Source: a virus (taxonomy: Duplodnaviria > Caudoviricetes). From it: a DNA stretch of 64,000 nucleotides. Below the pieces are notes generated by a model. The model was given only the letters and a program-made list of their open reading frames with translations. It did not search any database and was not told the origin of the DNA. A program made the translations under genes and the position numbers. Location: the IMG/VR virus record IMGVR_UViG_3300028797_000104, positions 1 to 64,000 of that record, one strand, 5' to 3'. Shown here piece after piece: positions 1-11,175 of this stretch (the stretch's first letter is position 1; each line of letters begins with the position of its first letter).

Positions 1-131
1 GAGTAGAATCTAAGTAGATTCAAAGCGCGTAGGTTCCTATAAACGGTAATAGAATATAGGAATATGATATAGTCTGTTCTATATAGTGATGTATAGAGAT
101 CAAATGGAAACGATTTGGTCGTAACATAAAG
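1..131 (+). mobile_element. Group I intron 1 of the capsid gene (3' part only)
   Basis: S element GATATAGTCTG, P9 hairpins and the AACATAAAG end shared with the other introns; the exon frame resumes at 132. Confidence 0.85.
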
Positions 132-3100
132 ATCGCAAATGATTTGGTTATAGTTCATCCTATGACTTCAATGTCTGGATATCAAATGTAAGGTATCCCT
201 TCTATAGTAATATAGATGAAAAAATACCAAGTGAATTGCTGGAAACTCCTTTTAAGAAAGGACAATCAGCAGCCAAGTATAAGTTTAATTATATTTTCGT
301 CATTTTTTATAATTTAAACTTATAAAGGTTCAGAGACTATCGAAAACATATATAAGAAGAAAAATCTTATAAAAGAAGTGAGTAGAGTACATCTTAAAAA
401 GATGGAAGCGCTTGGCATCTTATAAAGGATAAAACAATATAAGATGATGATATAGTCCGAACTTATCAGCAATGATAAGAATTTAATAGAAATATTAAGA
501 ATAACATAATTGATTACATACATTGAATACTTAGCCGGAAAGGCAAAAGGGGCAACAAGTCAGGGTGACTTATTTAATAGCCCATTCAAACTGGGAAATG
601 TTGATCCAAACTATACTGCTGACAGAGTAGTAGAAGCAGCTGCATCAGGCACTGGTGCTCAGGCATTAGCATGGACTCCAATCGTTCATGGTGCTATTCG
701 TTACAATAATGTTGATTATGACGTTAAGTTAGTAAAAGCTGGAGCCTCTGACATCTATGGTTTCTATAAGGATGCAGATAAGAAGTTCTATTCTGATGCA
801 GCTTATACAACTCAGATTAATGTTGCTTCTGATACTAAAGTAGCGTACGTTTATGACAACATTGTGGTACCATAGAACGATTTACCAACTCTGAAAGCTG
901 AAATGAAGAGCATTCCTCTGATTGCTCGCGCACGTAGAATTGCCGTATACTACTCACAAATTGCGGCATTCCAGGCAAAGACTGATTATGGGTTTGACCT
1001 TGGGGATTAGTTAGCAGAGAAAGCTGTTGGTCAGTTAAGCTATAAAAATTTTGTAGCATAATACAGTGATGTATTATTAAAAACTTCGTGAATTCATGGA
1101 AAACCTTATAAGAGTTTGTATCGCTTATATGGCAATCATGATCTAAGCTTTATAATTTAAAATAGAACATTATAATTATATTTTTGATTATAATGTAGGA
1201 CAGCATCGACGGATGTTTTCATAGAACTCCAATTTTTATGAATTACTACATTTAATATATTATTATTTTATTGATTGGAGAAATAAAATGTACGGATATA
1301 TTTATAAGACTACCGATAAGAAAACTGGTAAAATATATATTGGATAGCATCATGCACCTATATTTGAAGGATATAAATATTTGGGTAGCGGGTTAGTTAT
1401 TTCAAATATTAAAAATAAACTTTAGGAAGAAAATATTAATCTTGAATCGAGATTTGATATAGAAATGCTTGATACTGCTGAATCAAAGTTTGAATTAAAT
1501 GAGAAAGAAATTTATTGGATAAATAAATTAAATTCGAGAGATCCGGATATAGGATACAATATTTGTAAAGGTGGAGAAGCGGGTCCTGGAGGTCCGATGA
1601 TGTTAGGTCATAAGCACTCTAAAGAAACGAAAAGAAAAATGAGTGAAAATAGATCGGGGTCAAAAAATTCAAACTATGGAAATAGATGGCATCAATCAGA
1701 TGAATTAAAAGCATTACATAGTATTTTATCAGCAGGTAGTAATAATGGAATGTATGGTAAGAAGCATTCAACCGAATCAAAAAATAAAAATAGAGAATCC
1801 CATCTTGGTAAATTTGCTATATCTAATATTGAATTAGATAAAGTCATCATGGTAACAGAATCTGAATCTATTGAATATTTTAATAATGGTTGGATAAAAG
1901 GAAACATACATTGTAAAAGAGATTATAAAGAAAGAGCAACGACTATCGAAAGTATAGGTTAAGAGAAATATTTAACCAAATAAATGAGTAGAGTAGAACT
2001 TAAGTAAGTTCGAAGCGCGAAGCGTCTTATGTTTGGTAATAGAATATAAGATGATGATATAGTCTAATCTATAATGAATAAATAAATTATAGAGAATATA
2101 TGGAAACGATATATTCGTAATGAAAATGGAAATTGATACAGAAGTTGTAGAGCTTCTTGATAGCACTGCTGGTGCTGCATAGACTGACCTTCAGTGGTCA
2201 AAGACTCTCCCAGTTGGCGTTAACTACAAATTAGTTGTTTAAATTTGCGAGCGCCAACTTTAAAAAACCACATGAATTGCTGGGAAATCAATTAAAAATA
2301 GTTGACAATCAGCAGCGAAGTCCATATAATATAATATGGAAACGTTCAACGACTATCGAAAGTATAAACTAAAAGAAATATTTAGTTGAATAAACGAGTA
2401 GAGTAGGACTCAAATGAGTTCGAAGCATGTGGAATTTACTAAAGGATAAAACAATAGTAAATTATGATATAGTCTGAACTATATGGTAACATATAGAAAA
2501 TATTTTGAGAAAATTAAATATTCTTACATTTATAAATTTAATTAATGTTTATAAATGTGGGAATGAAATAAAATAATTTTCAATGAAATATTTGTAACAT
2601 AATTGAAGCAAGCAAGAACATTATCAAGGATTTATGGAAATCGTAGAAATTGGTCGCCAGTTAATTTATGATCGTACCAAGAGATTCAGCCCCAATTACA
2701 TGGTATGTGCTTCTAACCTGATTCCAGTATTAAGCTTCATTAATGGTTGGACACCTGCACCTGCAGGACAGGTTAATGGCCCATATTTCGCAGGTTAAAT
2801 AAATGAAAAATTTATTGTATATAATTATATGATAGGACAGCAGGTTGCAAACTGTTTTCAATACCTTGCTTTATTGGATTACTATCAAATATAATTTTTT
2901 ATCTTGCAAGGAGATATAACAAATGAATAAATAGGAAATAATTAATTATTATAGTATACATTCAACTAAGCAAACTTTGGAAAAGTTTAATTTATCTCGT
3001 CGTTAGTTATATAAAATACTTGATGAATTTAACATTGAGCATCATTCCCAAAAATTTAATATGAGTATTGATGGTAACGGTTTTAAAAGGAAAAAAGATT

Positions 3101-5414
3101 AGGAATTTAAACAATTATTAGATACAATAGACATTAATGAATTTTATGAATATTATCTTACTCACGCAAAAAAATATACTGCTATTAAATATAATATAAC
3201 GGAATCTAAAGTAGGATAGATTTTAGACCATTATAATTTAAAGCATTTAACCGCGTAGCAAGCATTAAATAATATTTATATTATTGAATATGGATCTATT
3301 GAGAATGGTAGACAAATTACTCATGGATCTACTATAAATAAGTTAAATTCAGAAGAATCTAAATAGAAACGAATTAATACGTGCATTGAAAAATATGGTG
3401 GACCTTCTCCTTTTTCCTCAAAAGAAATTTAGGATAAACGTAATAAAACGGTTCAGGATAAATATGGAGTATCTAATGTATCAAAATTAGATACGGTTAA
3501 AAATAAAATTAAATTAACGCATGAATCGCGCTATGGTGGAATTGGATGGGCAAGTGATAGTGGAATGACTAAATATAAAGAAACCCTTATGGAAAAATAT
3601 GGGGTTGAATATGCTTGCCAATTACCTCAATGTATAAATGCAAATCATGGATGTAATTCTGGACCTAATACTAACTTCGAGAATTTATGTAATGATAATA
3701 ATTTAATTATTGATAATAAAGAATTTGTTATTAATAATTTTCGATATGATTTTAAAATTGGAAATGTTTTAATAGAAATTAATCCGTCTTATTCCCATAA
3801 TTCAACTTTTGGATTTAAAAATACCGTTGATCCTTTAAATAAAGATTATCATTATAATAAATCTAAAATTGCTATTAATAATGGCTATAGATGTATTCAT
3901 GTATGGGATTGGGATGATCCATACAAAATAATTCAGTTATTAAAATCTAAAGAAAAAATATTTGCAAGAAAATGCCAAATAAAAGAAGTACCAAAAGAAG
4001 AAACCATTTATTTTATAAATAAATATCATTTATAGAATTATATTAAAGATGATATTAGAATTGGTTTATATTATGAAAACGAACTTATTTCTATAATGAC
4101 TTTCGGAAAACCAAGATATAATAAAAAGCACCAATATGAACTTCTTAGATATTGTTCATCAAAAAATATAATTGGAGGAGCGGAAAAATTATTTTCTTAT
4201 TTTATAGAAAAATATAACCCCGATTCAATTATCAGTTACTGCGATAAAAGTAAGTTCATAGGTAATGTTTATAAAAAACTTAATTTTATTAGTCAAGGTG
4301 AACCAAGACCCACAAGACACTGGTACAATATAAAAACAAAAAAACATATAACTGATAATCTTTTAAGACAAAGAGGATTTGATTAGTTATTTGGTACTAA
4401 TTATGGTAAAGGTACTAATAATGAATAGCTAATGTTAGAAAATGGGTTTATAGAAATATATGATTGTGGTCAAGAAACTTTTATTTGGAAAAATATATGA
4501 ATTTTTCTGTATAGCCTGGCTATACAGTGATGTATAGAATAATAAATGACTCTAATTGCTGGGAAGTCTTTAGAGCTTTAACTACTACAACATAGATTGA
4601 AAAGTCAAATGTGAAAGTTTAAAAAAGTTAAAGATTAGATAATCAGCAGCTAAGTTCCTAAAAATAATAAATTTAAGGAAAAAGTTCAACGACTATTCCT
4701 CCCAAAGAGGAAGTAGGTTCTAAGTAGAATCGAAACGGGTCACGTCTTATTAAAGACGAAGATATAGTCTGTACACATATGAAAGTATGTGCTTGGATAT
4801 TCCAAGATATAAAAGTAACGATTTTATATAAACATAATAGACACTTGGAGCGCTGAAAGTTTATGTATCTCCTGCTATGGCAGCTGGTAGATATATCATT
4901 GGCGTCAATGGTGACGATATGATGAGCTCCGTTAAACAATTAGCGGCATAAATAAGAAATTGTTTATGAAAACCTCGTGAACTCATGGAAAATCTTAATA
5001 TTTAAGGGCATAATATTAAGACAATCATGATCTAAGACTTAATAAAATTAAAGAAAGATGATATAAATTTATTAAGTAAAGAGCAACGACTATCGAAAGA
5101 CTTATCAAAAAGAAATATTTTGAATAAGAATCAAGTAGAGTAGATTTCAAGTGAAATCGAAGTGCGAGGAACCTTTAAAAGGATAAAACAATTAAAGGTT
5201 ATGATATAGTCTGAACTCCATAGTGATATGGAGAGAATAAATGGAAACGATTTATTTGTAACATAATTGAGCAGTGTATGCCCCGTACATGGCGATAGTC
5301 CCGACTCAGCTTCTCCAATATGCAGATGGTGGAACTAGCTAGGGATGGAGCACCCTTTACGATCTAAAGGTGCTTAATGCCGATCTGGTGGTAGCTGGAG
5401 AAATTGTAGCATAA
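132..5414 (+). CDS. Major capsid protein (T4 gp23-like), 5'-partial, spliced; exons 132-182, 513-1043, 2129-2220, 2606-2795, 4841-4932, 5270-5414
   Basis: Joining the exons at U.G-defined 5' sites and terminal-G 3' sites gives one frame: IANDLVIVHPMTSMSGY|ITYIEY...IARARRIAVYYS...LAEKAVGQLSY|EIDTEVVELL...PVGV|SKQEH...TKRFSPNYMVCASN...YFAG|TLGALKVYVSP...SSV|AVYAPYM...STLYDL. This matches gp23-family motifs (vQPM, LaxEI..EInrE, GtL..rykVY, YaPY). Needs TAG=Gln. Confidence 0.92.
183..512 (+). mobile_element. Group I intron 2 of the capsid gene (no ORF)
   Basis: P1 GGAUAU/GUAUCC with U.G at the splice site; core elements AATTGCTGGAAA, AATCAGCAG, GTTCAGAGACTA, GATATAGTCC; ends in G512. Confidence 0.9.
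1192..1280 (+). promoter_or_regulatory. Structured RNA leader with SD-pairing loop, copy 1
   Basis: Outer stem AAUGUAG/CUACAUU, two inner hairpins, and loop CUCCAAU complementary to AUUGGAG (SD, 1274-1280). A covarying copy lies at 2830-2913. Confidence 0.6.
1288..1962 (+). CDS. GIY-YIG homing endonuclease with NUMOD3 repeats
   Basis: MYGYIYKTT...KIYIG(TAG=Q)H...YLGSG...E.YWI...GYNI, followed by GHKHSKETKRKMS and GMYGKKHS repeats; in frame with track ORF 1465-1962. Confidence 0.9.
2221..2605 (+). mobile_element. Group I intron 4 of the capsid gene (no ORF)
   Basis: P1 GUUGGCGU/GCGCCAAC; core AATTGCTGGGAA, AATCAGCAG, GTTCAACGACTA, GATATAGTCTG; splicing rebuilds the Val codon GT|A. Confidence 0.9.
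2830..2913 (+). promoter_or_regulatory. Structured RNA leader with SD-pairing loop, copy 2
   Basis: Outer stem UGAUAG/CUAUCA, inner hairpins AGCAG/CUGUU and CAAUA/UAUUG, and loop CCUUGC complementary to GCAAGG(AG) at the SD. Confidence 0.6.
2923..4500 (+). CDS. Intron-encoded homing endonuclease (KYG repeats, Vsr/DUF559-like PD-(D/E)xK domain, Hef-like C-terminal domain)
   Basis: One frame with TAG=Q. EKYGGPSPF, DKYGVSNVS and EKYGVEYA repeats; RYDFKIGNVLIEIN; NGYRCIHVWDWD; MTFGKPRYNK..YELLRYCS..IIGGAEKLF. Confidence 0.8.
4933..5269 (+). mobile_element. Group I intron 6 of the capsid gene (no ORF)
   Basis: P1 CCGU/GCGG; core GAACTCATGGAAA, AATCATGA, GAGCAACGACTA, GATATAGTCTG; splicing rebuilds the Val codon GT|A. 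Confidence 0.9.
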
Positions 5415-5437
5415 TTAATATAAGATAAAGTTATTTT

Positions 5438-5476
5438 AGAGGGTAGTTAAATATAAATTAGCTACCCTCTTTTTTT
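5438..5476 (+). terminator. Rho-independent terminator after the capsid gene
   Basis: AGAGGGTAGTTAA / TTAGCTACCCTCT stem followed by a T run. Confidence 0.85.
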
Positions 5477-5655
5477 ATAATTATTTTTATCTTGTATATT
5501 ATATAAATAGTTGATCTTTCTATAATTTTATAATATAATTATAATGTAGAAATATCGGCTATTTGATAAAATTCTATACTTTTTATCTTAAATTTTTCTG
5601 CTATATTATTTAGAATTAAATAAATAAAATTTATATAGAAGAAGGTTGATTTTGC

Positions 5656-9645: not shown

Positions 9646-10130
9646 AAATATTAAAAGAAGAAACTAAATACCATCATGGTTCATTTAAAGATTTACAAAC
9701 ATTCTTAGATAAGAATGGAGATCCATACACACTAATACAATCTGATTATCCTCAAGATAAAAACAATAACAGTAAAAATAATTCTAATAAGTCTAGTGAT
9801 TCTCAGAAGGATAATTAGAACGATACTTAGAGTAATAGTCAAAAGCAAAATAATAATAACAATTCAAATAATCAATCAAGTAATTAGAATCAATAGAATA
9901 GTTAGTAGAATAATCAATCTAATAATCAGTAGAATTAGAGTAATAATTAGAATCAACAACAGAATAATAATAATTAGCAATAGCAAAATTAGAATTCATA
10001 GCAACAAGATTAGAAAAAAGTTCCACCGGATCCAAATGCATCTTATGTTGATGTCAGTACAGGATTTGAATATAAATGGGATCCATAGAAAAATCAATTT
10101 ATAAAGGTAGGTAAATATCGTGCCAAATAA
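9642..10130 (+). CDS. Gln/Asn-rich low-complexity linker protein
   Basis: ATG overlaps the upstream stop; N/Q/S tract with about 15 TAG codons mixed with CAA and CAG; ends in TAA. Confidence 0.8.
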
Positions 10131-11175
10131 AGATGTACATATTTATATTGATGATGATACTGGATTCAGATATATTTTTGATGGAACTAATCTTGTAAGG
10201 CTTCCTGACGATTCCGGAAGTGGTAATGGATCTGACGATTCCAAGCAAAACCAGAATAATAATAAATCTGATGAAAATGATTCTTTAAATGATGCGAAAG
10301 AATAGCATGATAAGGAAAAAGAACAATCAGATAAAAACGAAAGAAAACCGTAGATTGGCGACTCCGATGATTTAAGTGATGAAGATGCGGAACGGGAAAA
10401 ACAAGCAGAACAAGAACGAGAAGAAGACGGCGAAGAGGAAGAAACTCCGGAAGAACGTAAAGCAAGACTTGATAGAATAAAAAGATATTTATCCAATGAT
10501 GAAATTGGAGATCAAATTAATTATGAAAGCGAGAAAAAAGTTTCCGCAGAGAAACAAAGAAAGAAAGCTGCATAGAAAAAAGAAATTGAAAGAAATCTAA
10601 AAGGAGCAGAAAGAAATGCTCACGTTATTTCTTTACTTGGAAAAGATCTGAAATAGTTCTTGGGTAAACTTCTTGGTAAATCTGAACGTAATGCAACTTG
10701 GAGAAAGTATAATGCAAATTATGCTAATGTAGGTTTAATTCGTCCAGGATATAGATATGATCCAGTTGGTAAAATTCCTGTTATTCAAATATATCTGGAT
10801 CAATCAGGATCTTGGGGTGAAGATGATATTAAATTAGCAAATGATATACTTAAATCAATTCAAGAATTTGAGGATAAGAATTTATTAAAAGTTCAGGTAT
10901 ATTATTTTGCAAATCATATTTATGATAATGCAGCGGCGGCAAGAGACGAAGGTGGAACGGCTGCTGGGACTGAATTAATGCAATAGTTAAATGAACAAAA
11001 ACCTGAAAATGTTATAGTAATAACGGATGGCGATTTTGATCATTTTGGTTTGAATGGTTCCTATACTGCACCTGGTGGAGTTTGGATGGTTTTCCGAGCA
11101 GCAAGATCAGAGTAGCTTATAAAAGCACTTAAAGGTAGACTTCAAACAAAAATTTATGATATAGATAGAATATAA
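10120..11175 (+). CDS. vWA-domain protein (DUF2201 C-terminal type)
   Basis: MIDAS motif IYLDQSGSW, plus GGT and VIVITDGD; acidic coiled-coil N-terminal half. Confidence 0.85.

Follow-up and report, generated by a model that had tools for sequence, protein, structure and literature searches.

The first 64,000 nucleotides (nt) of the IMG/VR virus record IMGVR_UViG_3300028797_000104, referred to here as the window, begin inside a major capsid gene that is divided into seven exons by six introns. We consider it likely that this is a single functional gene for a gp23/HK97-fold major capsid protein (MCP), carried by a phage that reads TAG as glutamine (Gln) and interrupted by six mobile group I introns, which are most plausibly selfish elements. 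The window makes up the first 64 kb of a 151,308-bp viral contig that is classed as linear and has a CheckV completeness of 71%, and the phage genome is about 151 kb in size. Window positions 1-5414 hold the 3' five-sixths of this gp23-family gene, and the window starts within its intron 1. At the far end of the contig lie, in order, the large terminase (phrog_9), the portal (phrog_213), an open reading frame (ORF) of 168 amino acids (aa) and the head maturation protease (phrog_207), directly followed by an ATG at contig position 150261 that is led by a Shine-Dalgarno (SD) sequence and opens the 79-codon exon 1; two Rfam group I intron matches come after this exon. The head module, exon 1 and the intron matches at the far end indicate that the capsid gene wraps round the contig ends. 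Terminase, portal, protease and capsid gene thus stand in head-module order, and the protease is also followed by the MCP in Bacillus phage vB_BceM-HSE3 (HSE3) and Listeria phage LIS04. An earlier note on this DNA had counted at least six introns; the whole gene, including exon 1 at the contig end, has exactly six, with a summed length of 4,545 nt, so that 77% of the gene span is intron and the seven exons make up an ORF of 1,338 nt. The GC content is 41% in the exons, 26% in the introns and 30% in the genome. The genome has one copy of the capsid gene.

The exon-intron junctions were set without reference to RNA features, by aligning the exon frames to uninterrupted capsid genes of related viral contigs (L020 and L024) and to annotated MCPs. 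The junctions that the earlier note had placed at 182/513, 1043/2129, 2220/2606, 2795/4841 and 4932/5270, together with the end of intron 1 at 131/132, all agree with these uninterrupted homologues, and its short exons of 51 and 92 nt and two split Val codons are correct as well; the latter read GT/A and are formed by positions 2219-2220 with 2606 and 4931-4932 with 5270. Removal of the introns gives the continuous frame that had been claimed, of 445 codons with four TAGs and no stop except the terminal TAA. The exons are intact and in frame, with no frameshift and no stop other than TAG, and they are 57-97% identical to their homologues. End to end, the joined protein is 68-69% identical to the uninterrupted capsid genes of related contigs. 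Its seven exons align consecutively with residues 14-453 of the MCP of HSE3 (455 aa), the nearest cultured relative, with 31.6% identity and E=1.5e-66, and exon 3 finds the annotated major capsid proteins of both HSE3 and LIS04 by tblastn.

Exon 3 alone, like the other exons taken singly, had no match in PHROGs or Pfam. The capsid identity therefore came from tblastn and from the uninterrupted homologues, and the gene would altogether escape standard gene callers, since its single exons match no family. The uninterrupted homologues L020 and L024, which are 69% identical to the joined protein, match PF07068 (Gp23) with 94 and 110 bits against a cut-off of 24.4, and uninterrupted relatives match phrog_138, "major head protein". 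A profile built from eight homologues matches the solved T4 gp23 chains 6uzc, 5vf3 and 8t9r over its positions 78-408, at E=1e-8. On these matches the gene is assigned as a gp23/HK97-fold major capsid gene, in accordance with the gp23-like capsid that the earlier note had proposed.

For the intervening segments, the Rfam covariance model RF00028 was applied with its curated gathering score of 50 bits. Introns 2, 4, 5 and 6 reach this score and thereby belong to group I, and the other two are paralogues of members of this set. Introns 1, 2, 3, 4 and 6 are mutually 70-76% identical by blastn; for example, introns 1 and 6 share 72% identity over 312 nt. Intron 3 gives a partial Rfam match because an ORF splits its ribozyme core: its 5' part (1080-1197) and its 3' part (1923-2120) align by blastn to adjacent segments of introns 1 and 6, which identifies it as the same ribozyme with an ORF-bearing insert of about 725 nt in the P6 region. 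Introns 1 and 3 qualify as group I through their 70-76% paralogy to introns 2, 4 and 6, which covers both halves of the core. Intron 5 had no blastn match to the other five and is, by this comparison, unrelated to them; among cultured phages, it is matched best by introns from Serratia, Staphylococcus, Pseudomonas and crAss-like phages. Neither blastn nor Rfam at its gathering score found a further intron copy in the rest of the genome.

The RNA features follow the same junctions. All six introns terminate in G (131, 512, 2128, 2605, 4840 and 5269) and all six 5' exons terminate in T, which is U in the RNA. The earlier note had seen the U.G P1 helix in five introns; it is found in all six, that of intron 5 being tentative, with a length of 6-10 bp. 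In introns 1-4 and 6 the P1 guide pairing lies 8-31 nt downstream of the 5' splice site. With a slash at the splice site, the pairings are CCUU/GG with UUGAGG for intron 1, GGAUAU/C with GGUAUCC for intron 2 (U182.G193), GCUAU/AAA with UUUGUAGC for intron 3, the 10-bp helix AGUUGGCGU/U with AGCGCCAACU for intron 4, and CCGU/UAA with UUAGCGG for intron 6. For intron 5 the candidate is CAGGU/UA with UAGCCUG and G4514; this guide, at 4508-4518, is 3' of the ORF, offers the best exon-side pairing and is situated just upstream of a P2-like hairpin capped by GUGA. If G4514 belongs to the guide of intron 5, the 525-aa ORF would sit in the P1 loop. A P10 pairing of 6-9 bp can be drawn for introns 2, 3 and 4 and for a variant copy of intron 2, and measures 6 bp in introns 2 and 4. 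By covariance model, paralogy and pairings, the interruptions are group I introns, and self-splicing is predicted for them.

Table 1. Layout of the capsid gene, ribozyme core matches, and comparison of the two copies present at the contig ends (window positions unless stated otherwise; TAG codons read as Gln).
Feature	Position	Strand	Details
Exon 1	contig 150261-150497		237 nt; outside the window
Intron 1, 3' part	1..131	+	ends at G131; 5' part is contig 150498-150729; whole intron 363 nt
Intron 1, RF00028 match	L008 11179-11517		contig-end copy; 29 bits, E=3.6e-4
Exon 2	132..182	+	51 nt (IANDLVIVHPMTSMSGY); aligns to L020 residues 80-96 and HSE3 MCP 86-101
Intron 2	183..512	+	330 nt; without ORF
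Intron 2, RF00028 match	173-479		72 bits
Exon 3	513..1043	+	531 nt; TAG codons 873-875 and 1008-1010
Intron 3	1044..2128	+	1085 nt; GIY-YIG ORF 1288-1962 splits the ribozyme core
Intron 3, RF00028 match	1972-2092		3' half only; 20 bits
Exon 4	2129..2220	+	92 nt; TAG 2180-2182; aligns to L020 residues 266-299; ends with GT of split Val
Intron 4	2221..2605	+	385 nt; without ORF
Intron 4, RF00028 match	2189-2496		69 bits
Exon 5	2606..2795	+	190 nt; 73% identity to L020 residues 299-361
Intron 5	2796..4840	+	2045 nt; 525-aa ORF 2923-4500 between 5' splice site and core
Intron 5, RF00028 match	4503-4791		68 bits
Exon 6	4841..4932	+	92 nt; 70% identity to L020 residues 362-391; ends with GT of split Val
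Intron 6	4933..5269	+	337 nt; without ORF
Intron 6, RF00028 match	4923-5233		61 bits
Exon 7	5270..5414	+	145 nt; TAG 5340-5342; stop TAA 5412-5414; 81% identity to L020 residues 393-439
Intrinsic terminator	5438..5480	+	13-bp stem followed by a T-run; 3' of the capsid gene
SD-complementary segments	1227-1233 with 1274-1280; 2864-2869 with 2906-2911		found by eye
Contig-end copy	contig 150730-151308 (L008 11422-12000)		compared with window 1-580
Copies, intron 1 3' part			identity 130/131
Copies, exon 2			identity 41/51; ten differences, all synonymous
Copies, intron 2 P1-P2 region			identity 34/46
Copies, intron 2 core			identity 274/284
Copies, exon 3, first 59 nt after the IEY codons			identity 50/59

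The four in-frame TAGs had been put down in the earlier note to readthrough. The mechanism is better described as a genome-wide reassignment of TAG to Gln, resembling genetic code 15, with a phage tRNA. When TAG is read as sense, plus-strand ORFs of 100 aa or longer add up to 20,129 aa instead of 10,052 aa, and the longest ORF grows from 390 to 1,354 aa. ARAGORN found no tRNA in the window, and a cluster of 16 tRNAs is located at contig 88862-98691 (L092 4862-14691), including one with the anticodon CUA at 92251-92324 (L092 8251-8324). Three of the four TAGs in the capsid exons stand at an invariant Gln of the relatives (VVPQNDLP, LGDQLAEK and GGTSQGW). It is the combination of the tRNA with anticodon CUA (tRNA-CUA), TAG at conserved Gln and the doubled ORF content that argues for recoding and not readthrough. 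TAG is unevenly used: contig 90000-120000, which holds tRNAs, has 0-1.8 TAG per 1000 codons against 15-21 in the structural-gene regions, and a similar distribution has been reported for recoded phages (PMC7886860). Small ORFs fill this stretch of about 30 kb, which is nearly free of TAG; it could be an early region that is readable before the suppressor tRNA is made. One Rfam tRNA match of the cluster spans 150 nt (L092 13431-13580) and may hold an insertion.

Two of the introns carry ORFs. That of intron 3 encodes a 224-aa GIY-YIG enzyme, and its last codons overlap the ribozyme core. It matches TIGR01453, "group I intron endonuclease" (I-TevI-like), with 69.3 bits against the NCBIfam cut-off of 56.05, as well as phrog_314 (1.8e-29) and NUMOD3 (3.9e-10), and is a putative GIY-YIG homing endonuclease. 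The 525-aa ORF of intron 5 includes ten TAG codons, matches phrog_3339, "homing endonuclease", at 8e-65, and has helix-turn-helix and DUF7487 domains with a sub-threshold Mom-like match; no sequence relative was found in the PDB and no match in NCBIfam. We regard it as a predicted endonuclease-like protein. In five relatives (L040, at 10087-10737, and L010, L012, L037 and L077), DNA with 68% identity to the intron 5 ORF follows the capsid gene, and the family may be free-standing or housed in other introns nearby in these genomes. By eye, segments complementary to the SD regions ATTGGAG and GCAAGG (CTCCAAT and CCTTGC, respectively) are seen 5' of the two endonuclease ORFs, as is a common TAGGACAGCA...GTTTTCA element. 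Translational masking is known for T4 I-TevI, and the SD-complementary segments, again judged by eye, resemble it.

The distribution of introns among relatives was obtained with exon 3 as a query, which returned 143 related viral contigs, 80 of which were kept for comparison. The capsid locus is uninterrupted in 58 of the 80, judged on the capsid sequence present, which is partial in a few, and the remaining 22 have one to at least four insertions. Those insertions that were scanned with Rfam are group I introns of 53-105 bits. Within the sample, the six introns of IMGVR_UViG_3300028797_000104 are the highest count, and multi-intron capsid genes recur in the clade, as L065 carries five Rfam group I matches in or beside its capsid gene (L065/L066 4886-10296); its sites include L020 residues 240 and 325, which are not used in IMGVR_UViG_3300028797_000104. 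Apart from these two residues, the occupied sites of relatives cluster N-terminally in a conserved segment, at L020 residues 39-42, 63-68, 76-84, 94-99 and 104-105. The sites near residues 79 and 96 of the present gene are common to relatives, and the four sites further downstream (L020 267, 299, 361 and 392; own residues 273, 304, 367 and 398) are occupied in none of the 80. The remark in the earlier note that the interruptions sit at conserved capsid motifs holds: mean conservation in windows of 12-13 residues is 0.765 at the six sites against 0.632 at random positions, and 1.4% of random sextets reach this value (P=0.014). Judged by similarity, five of the six introns are one family that occupies many different conserved capsid-gene sites in the clade. 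A maximum likelihood tree of the intron 3' cores with 19 introns of relatives, made to trace the order of spread and a possible burst of the five related introns within the gene, is star-like: the introns of the present gene neither cluster together nor sort by insertion site, and nearest-neighbour blastn is equally ambiguous.

A second copy of part of the gene is present in the same assembly. The last 578 nt of the contig match window 1-580 at 90% identity, and such a low identity between overlapping contig ends implies that at least two strains were merged; both copies come from a mixed-strain metagenome assembly. Between them the introns are 96.5-99% identical, whereas the exons are only 80-85% identical. 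Intron 2 precedes the ITY codons in the window copy and lies 9 nt further downstream, before IEY, in the contig-end copy. Its P1 is rewritten to fit, GGAUAU with GGUAUCC in the window against CAUAU/UGAA with UUCAGUAUG at the contig end, and P10 has 6 bp in the former and 9 bp in the latter. Relatives use either position: in L010, L037 and L040 the intron precedes ITY, and in L065 it precedes IEY. The exon sequence on both sides differs by 15-20% between the copies as far as the splice sites, and no co-conversion tract is seen. Near-identical introns within diverged exons that lack co-conversion point to recent movement of the intron between strains, for which reverse splicing, recombination of the guide module, or homing with very short conversion tracts may be the route. 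We further suggest, tentatively, that the two copies may have caught an intron in the act of changing its target, and that the family might colonise new sites by reverse splicing or a swap of guide modules and not by endonuclease-driven homing. If this is true, it would explain how one gene gathered six introns, four of them at sites occupied in none of the 80 relatives.

Under the interpretation that we favor, expression would proceed as follows. One pre-mRNA of about 5.9 kb would run from the SD-led ATG at contig 150261 to the strong terminator at 5438-5480, which is the sole plus-strand terminator-like site in 1-5500; none was found inside the capsid gene. Shuffled sequence has promoter-like sites at least as often as the gene does, and for this reason we do not claim separate promoters for the endonucleases. 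Each intron would excise by guanosine-initiated, two-step transesterification, with the U.G pair of P1 setting the 5' splice site and the terminal G setting the 3' splice site. The product would be a 1,338-nt mRNA whose four in-frame TAGs would be read as Gln by the phage tRNA-CUA. The introns, five of which belong to one family, would be selfish elements, and the GIY-YIG and 525-aa endonuclease ORFs would drive homing into intron-less alleles during co-infection. Activity of the two enzymes, mobility of the introns and the lack of a dedicated regulatory role are what we infer from this pattern.

Several points weigh against this interpretation. The last 450 nt of the contig represent a second strain variant, and exon 1 with the 5' part of intron 1 is taken from that end, which makes the seven-exon gene a join across a mixed-strain assembly. 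Intron 1, at 29 bits, falls under the gathering score, and the match of intron 3 is only partial. The P1 of intron 5 is ambiguous among three candidates, two of which have more paired bases overall than the one preferred here, and its assignment is for this reason tentative. P10 is weak for introns 1, 5 and 6. Splicing itself is likewise something we infer from the anatomy, and sequence data alone fit a purely selfish and an adaptive role of the introns alike.

The adaptive role that fares best is one in competition. The introns, or at least the two with endonucleases, could be retained because the enzymes cut the intron-less capsid genes of co-infecting relatives, thereby blocking the rivals' capsid production or converting their genomes, so that the introns would be an arsenal as well as a burden. 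An intron-encoded endonuclease has been found by experiment to mediate interference competition between co-infecting phages (PMC11620839), and the setting is suitable here: intron-free and intron-bearing capsid alleles both circulate in the clade, two strain variants occur together in one assembly, both endonuclease ORFs are intact in the phage's own code with TAG as Gln, and all introns detected in the genome target one essential and conserved gene. On the other hand, four of the six introns have no ORF, cleavage and target sites of the endonucleases are only presumed, and purely selfish homing predicts the same pattern equally. We hold a competitive function to be possible but rather unlikely.

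It is a good deal less probable that six splicing steps and TAG decoding serve to time or throttle capsid production, as the earlier note had suggested. The capsid mRNA would indeed become translatable only once all six introns have been removed and tRNA-CUA is present, and the near-absence of TAG at 90-120 kb, compared with its common use in structural genes, fits the stage-dependent decoding proposed for recoded phages (PMC7886860). Yet in 58 of the 80 relatives the same protein is made without any interruption of its gene, and the number of introns varies from 0 to 6, which indicates that the introns are dispensable for regulation in the clade; with most relatives lacking any intron, a timing or throttling role is unsupported. 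The conserved sites, the endonuclease ORFs and the variation in presence and absence are moreover the signature of mobile elements, TAG dependence spans most of the genome and not the capsid gene in particular, and it is hard to see what a phage would gain from throttling its most abundant virion protein.

That the gene does not work at all, either because the assembly is chimeric or because it is a capsid pseudogene in decay under an invasion of mobile elements, is hardly credible. The contig, a metagenome assembly, is rated 71% complete and its ends overlap at only 90% identity, but these readings were rejected: none of the seven exons is damaged or out of frame, their identity to homologues is 57-97%, the strain differences in exon 2 are all synonymous, the genome has no other capsid gene and the ribozyme cores are conserved.

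For capsid genes with group I introns precedents exist, and the novelty that the earlier note had seen in such a density of introns in a capsid gene was overstated. In crAss-like phages, the MCPs of the Delta group typically contain introns and one MCP of the Zeta group is in five fragments (Yutin et al., 2021; PMC7886860); these phages often reassign stop codons, and recoding is also found in other genes that are split by introns or inteins (PMC7886860). The likeness to the Delta and Zeta groups extends to group I introns in the MCP of uncultured phages and to stop codons reassigned via suppressor tRNAs. In contrast to them, the present phage belongs to a different lineage with a capsid family of the gp23 type, its gene has six introns against four intervening segments, the introns are documented by an RNA covariance model and nucleotide junctions and not only by the domains of intron ORFs, and all detected introns are in one gene, whereas Zeta genomes hold up to 14 introns per genome. 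A capsid intron with a homing endonuclease inside is known from mycobacteriophage LittleE, where splicing during late expression was observed by reverse transcription PCR (Pope et al., 2013; PMC3706429), and that article cites a group I intron in the capsid gene of lactococcal phage Tuc2009. These cases share the group I intron in a capsid subunit gene and the same rule of U(-1) and terminal G, and differ in having one intron and the standard code, as opposed to six introns and exons down to 51 nt.

Several introns per gene are likewise on record. Three group I introns lie in orf142 of Staphylococcus phage Twort (Landthaler and Shub, 1999, as cited in PMC6669764). Together with the introns of T4 td, nrdB and nrdD, those of Twort resemble the present ones in their phage-type GACUA...UAGUC P7 core, and this T4/Twort set also includes the GIY-YIG (I-TevI-like) intron endonuclease with NUMOD3. 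The differences are that the present gene has twice as many introns as Twort's, that the host gene is structural and not one of DNA metabolism, and that the genome is recoded. The jumbo gut phages named Jug have a mean of 18.5 group I introns per genome, and metatranscriptome reads confirm splicing for about half of the predictions (PMC12880540). There, too, essential phage genes are broken up by numerous group I introns and homing endonucleases, but these are spread over terL, nrdD, DNA polymerase and other genes in 2-3 fragments per gene, unlike the six in one 1.3-kb gene described here. A literature search joining recoded phages with interrupted capsid genes gave no result. The annotation of the HSE3 terminase (MF418016.1 31187-33951) includes an intein splicing region. 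Self-splicing elements seem to enter head-module genes readily in the wider group.

The present gene is therefore an extreme example of a published phenomenon in a different capsid family and phage lineage, and as the kind of phenomenon is already known, it extends existing knowledge and does not overturn it. Six introns are the highest count per phage gene among the published cases compared, and the intron 2 that appears retargeted by 9 nt is the most novel element. Short internal exons in Twort reportedly led to exon skipping. Here a 17-codon exon stands between two paralogous introns, three quarters of the gene is intron, and translation also needs a reassigned stop codon. The clade offers a natural series of 0-6 introns, from one family and at more than 10 sites in one protein, which would lend itself to work on how faithfully paralogous introns keep to their own splice sites, on the retargeting of guides, and on intron spread. 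The gene illustrates how heavy a load of mobile ribozymes a phage would bear in the essential gene that it expresses most strongly.

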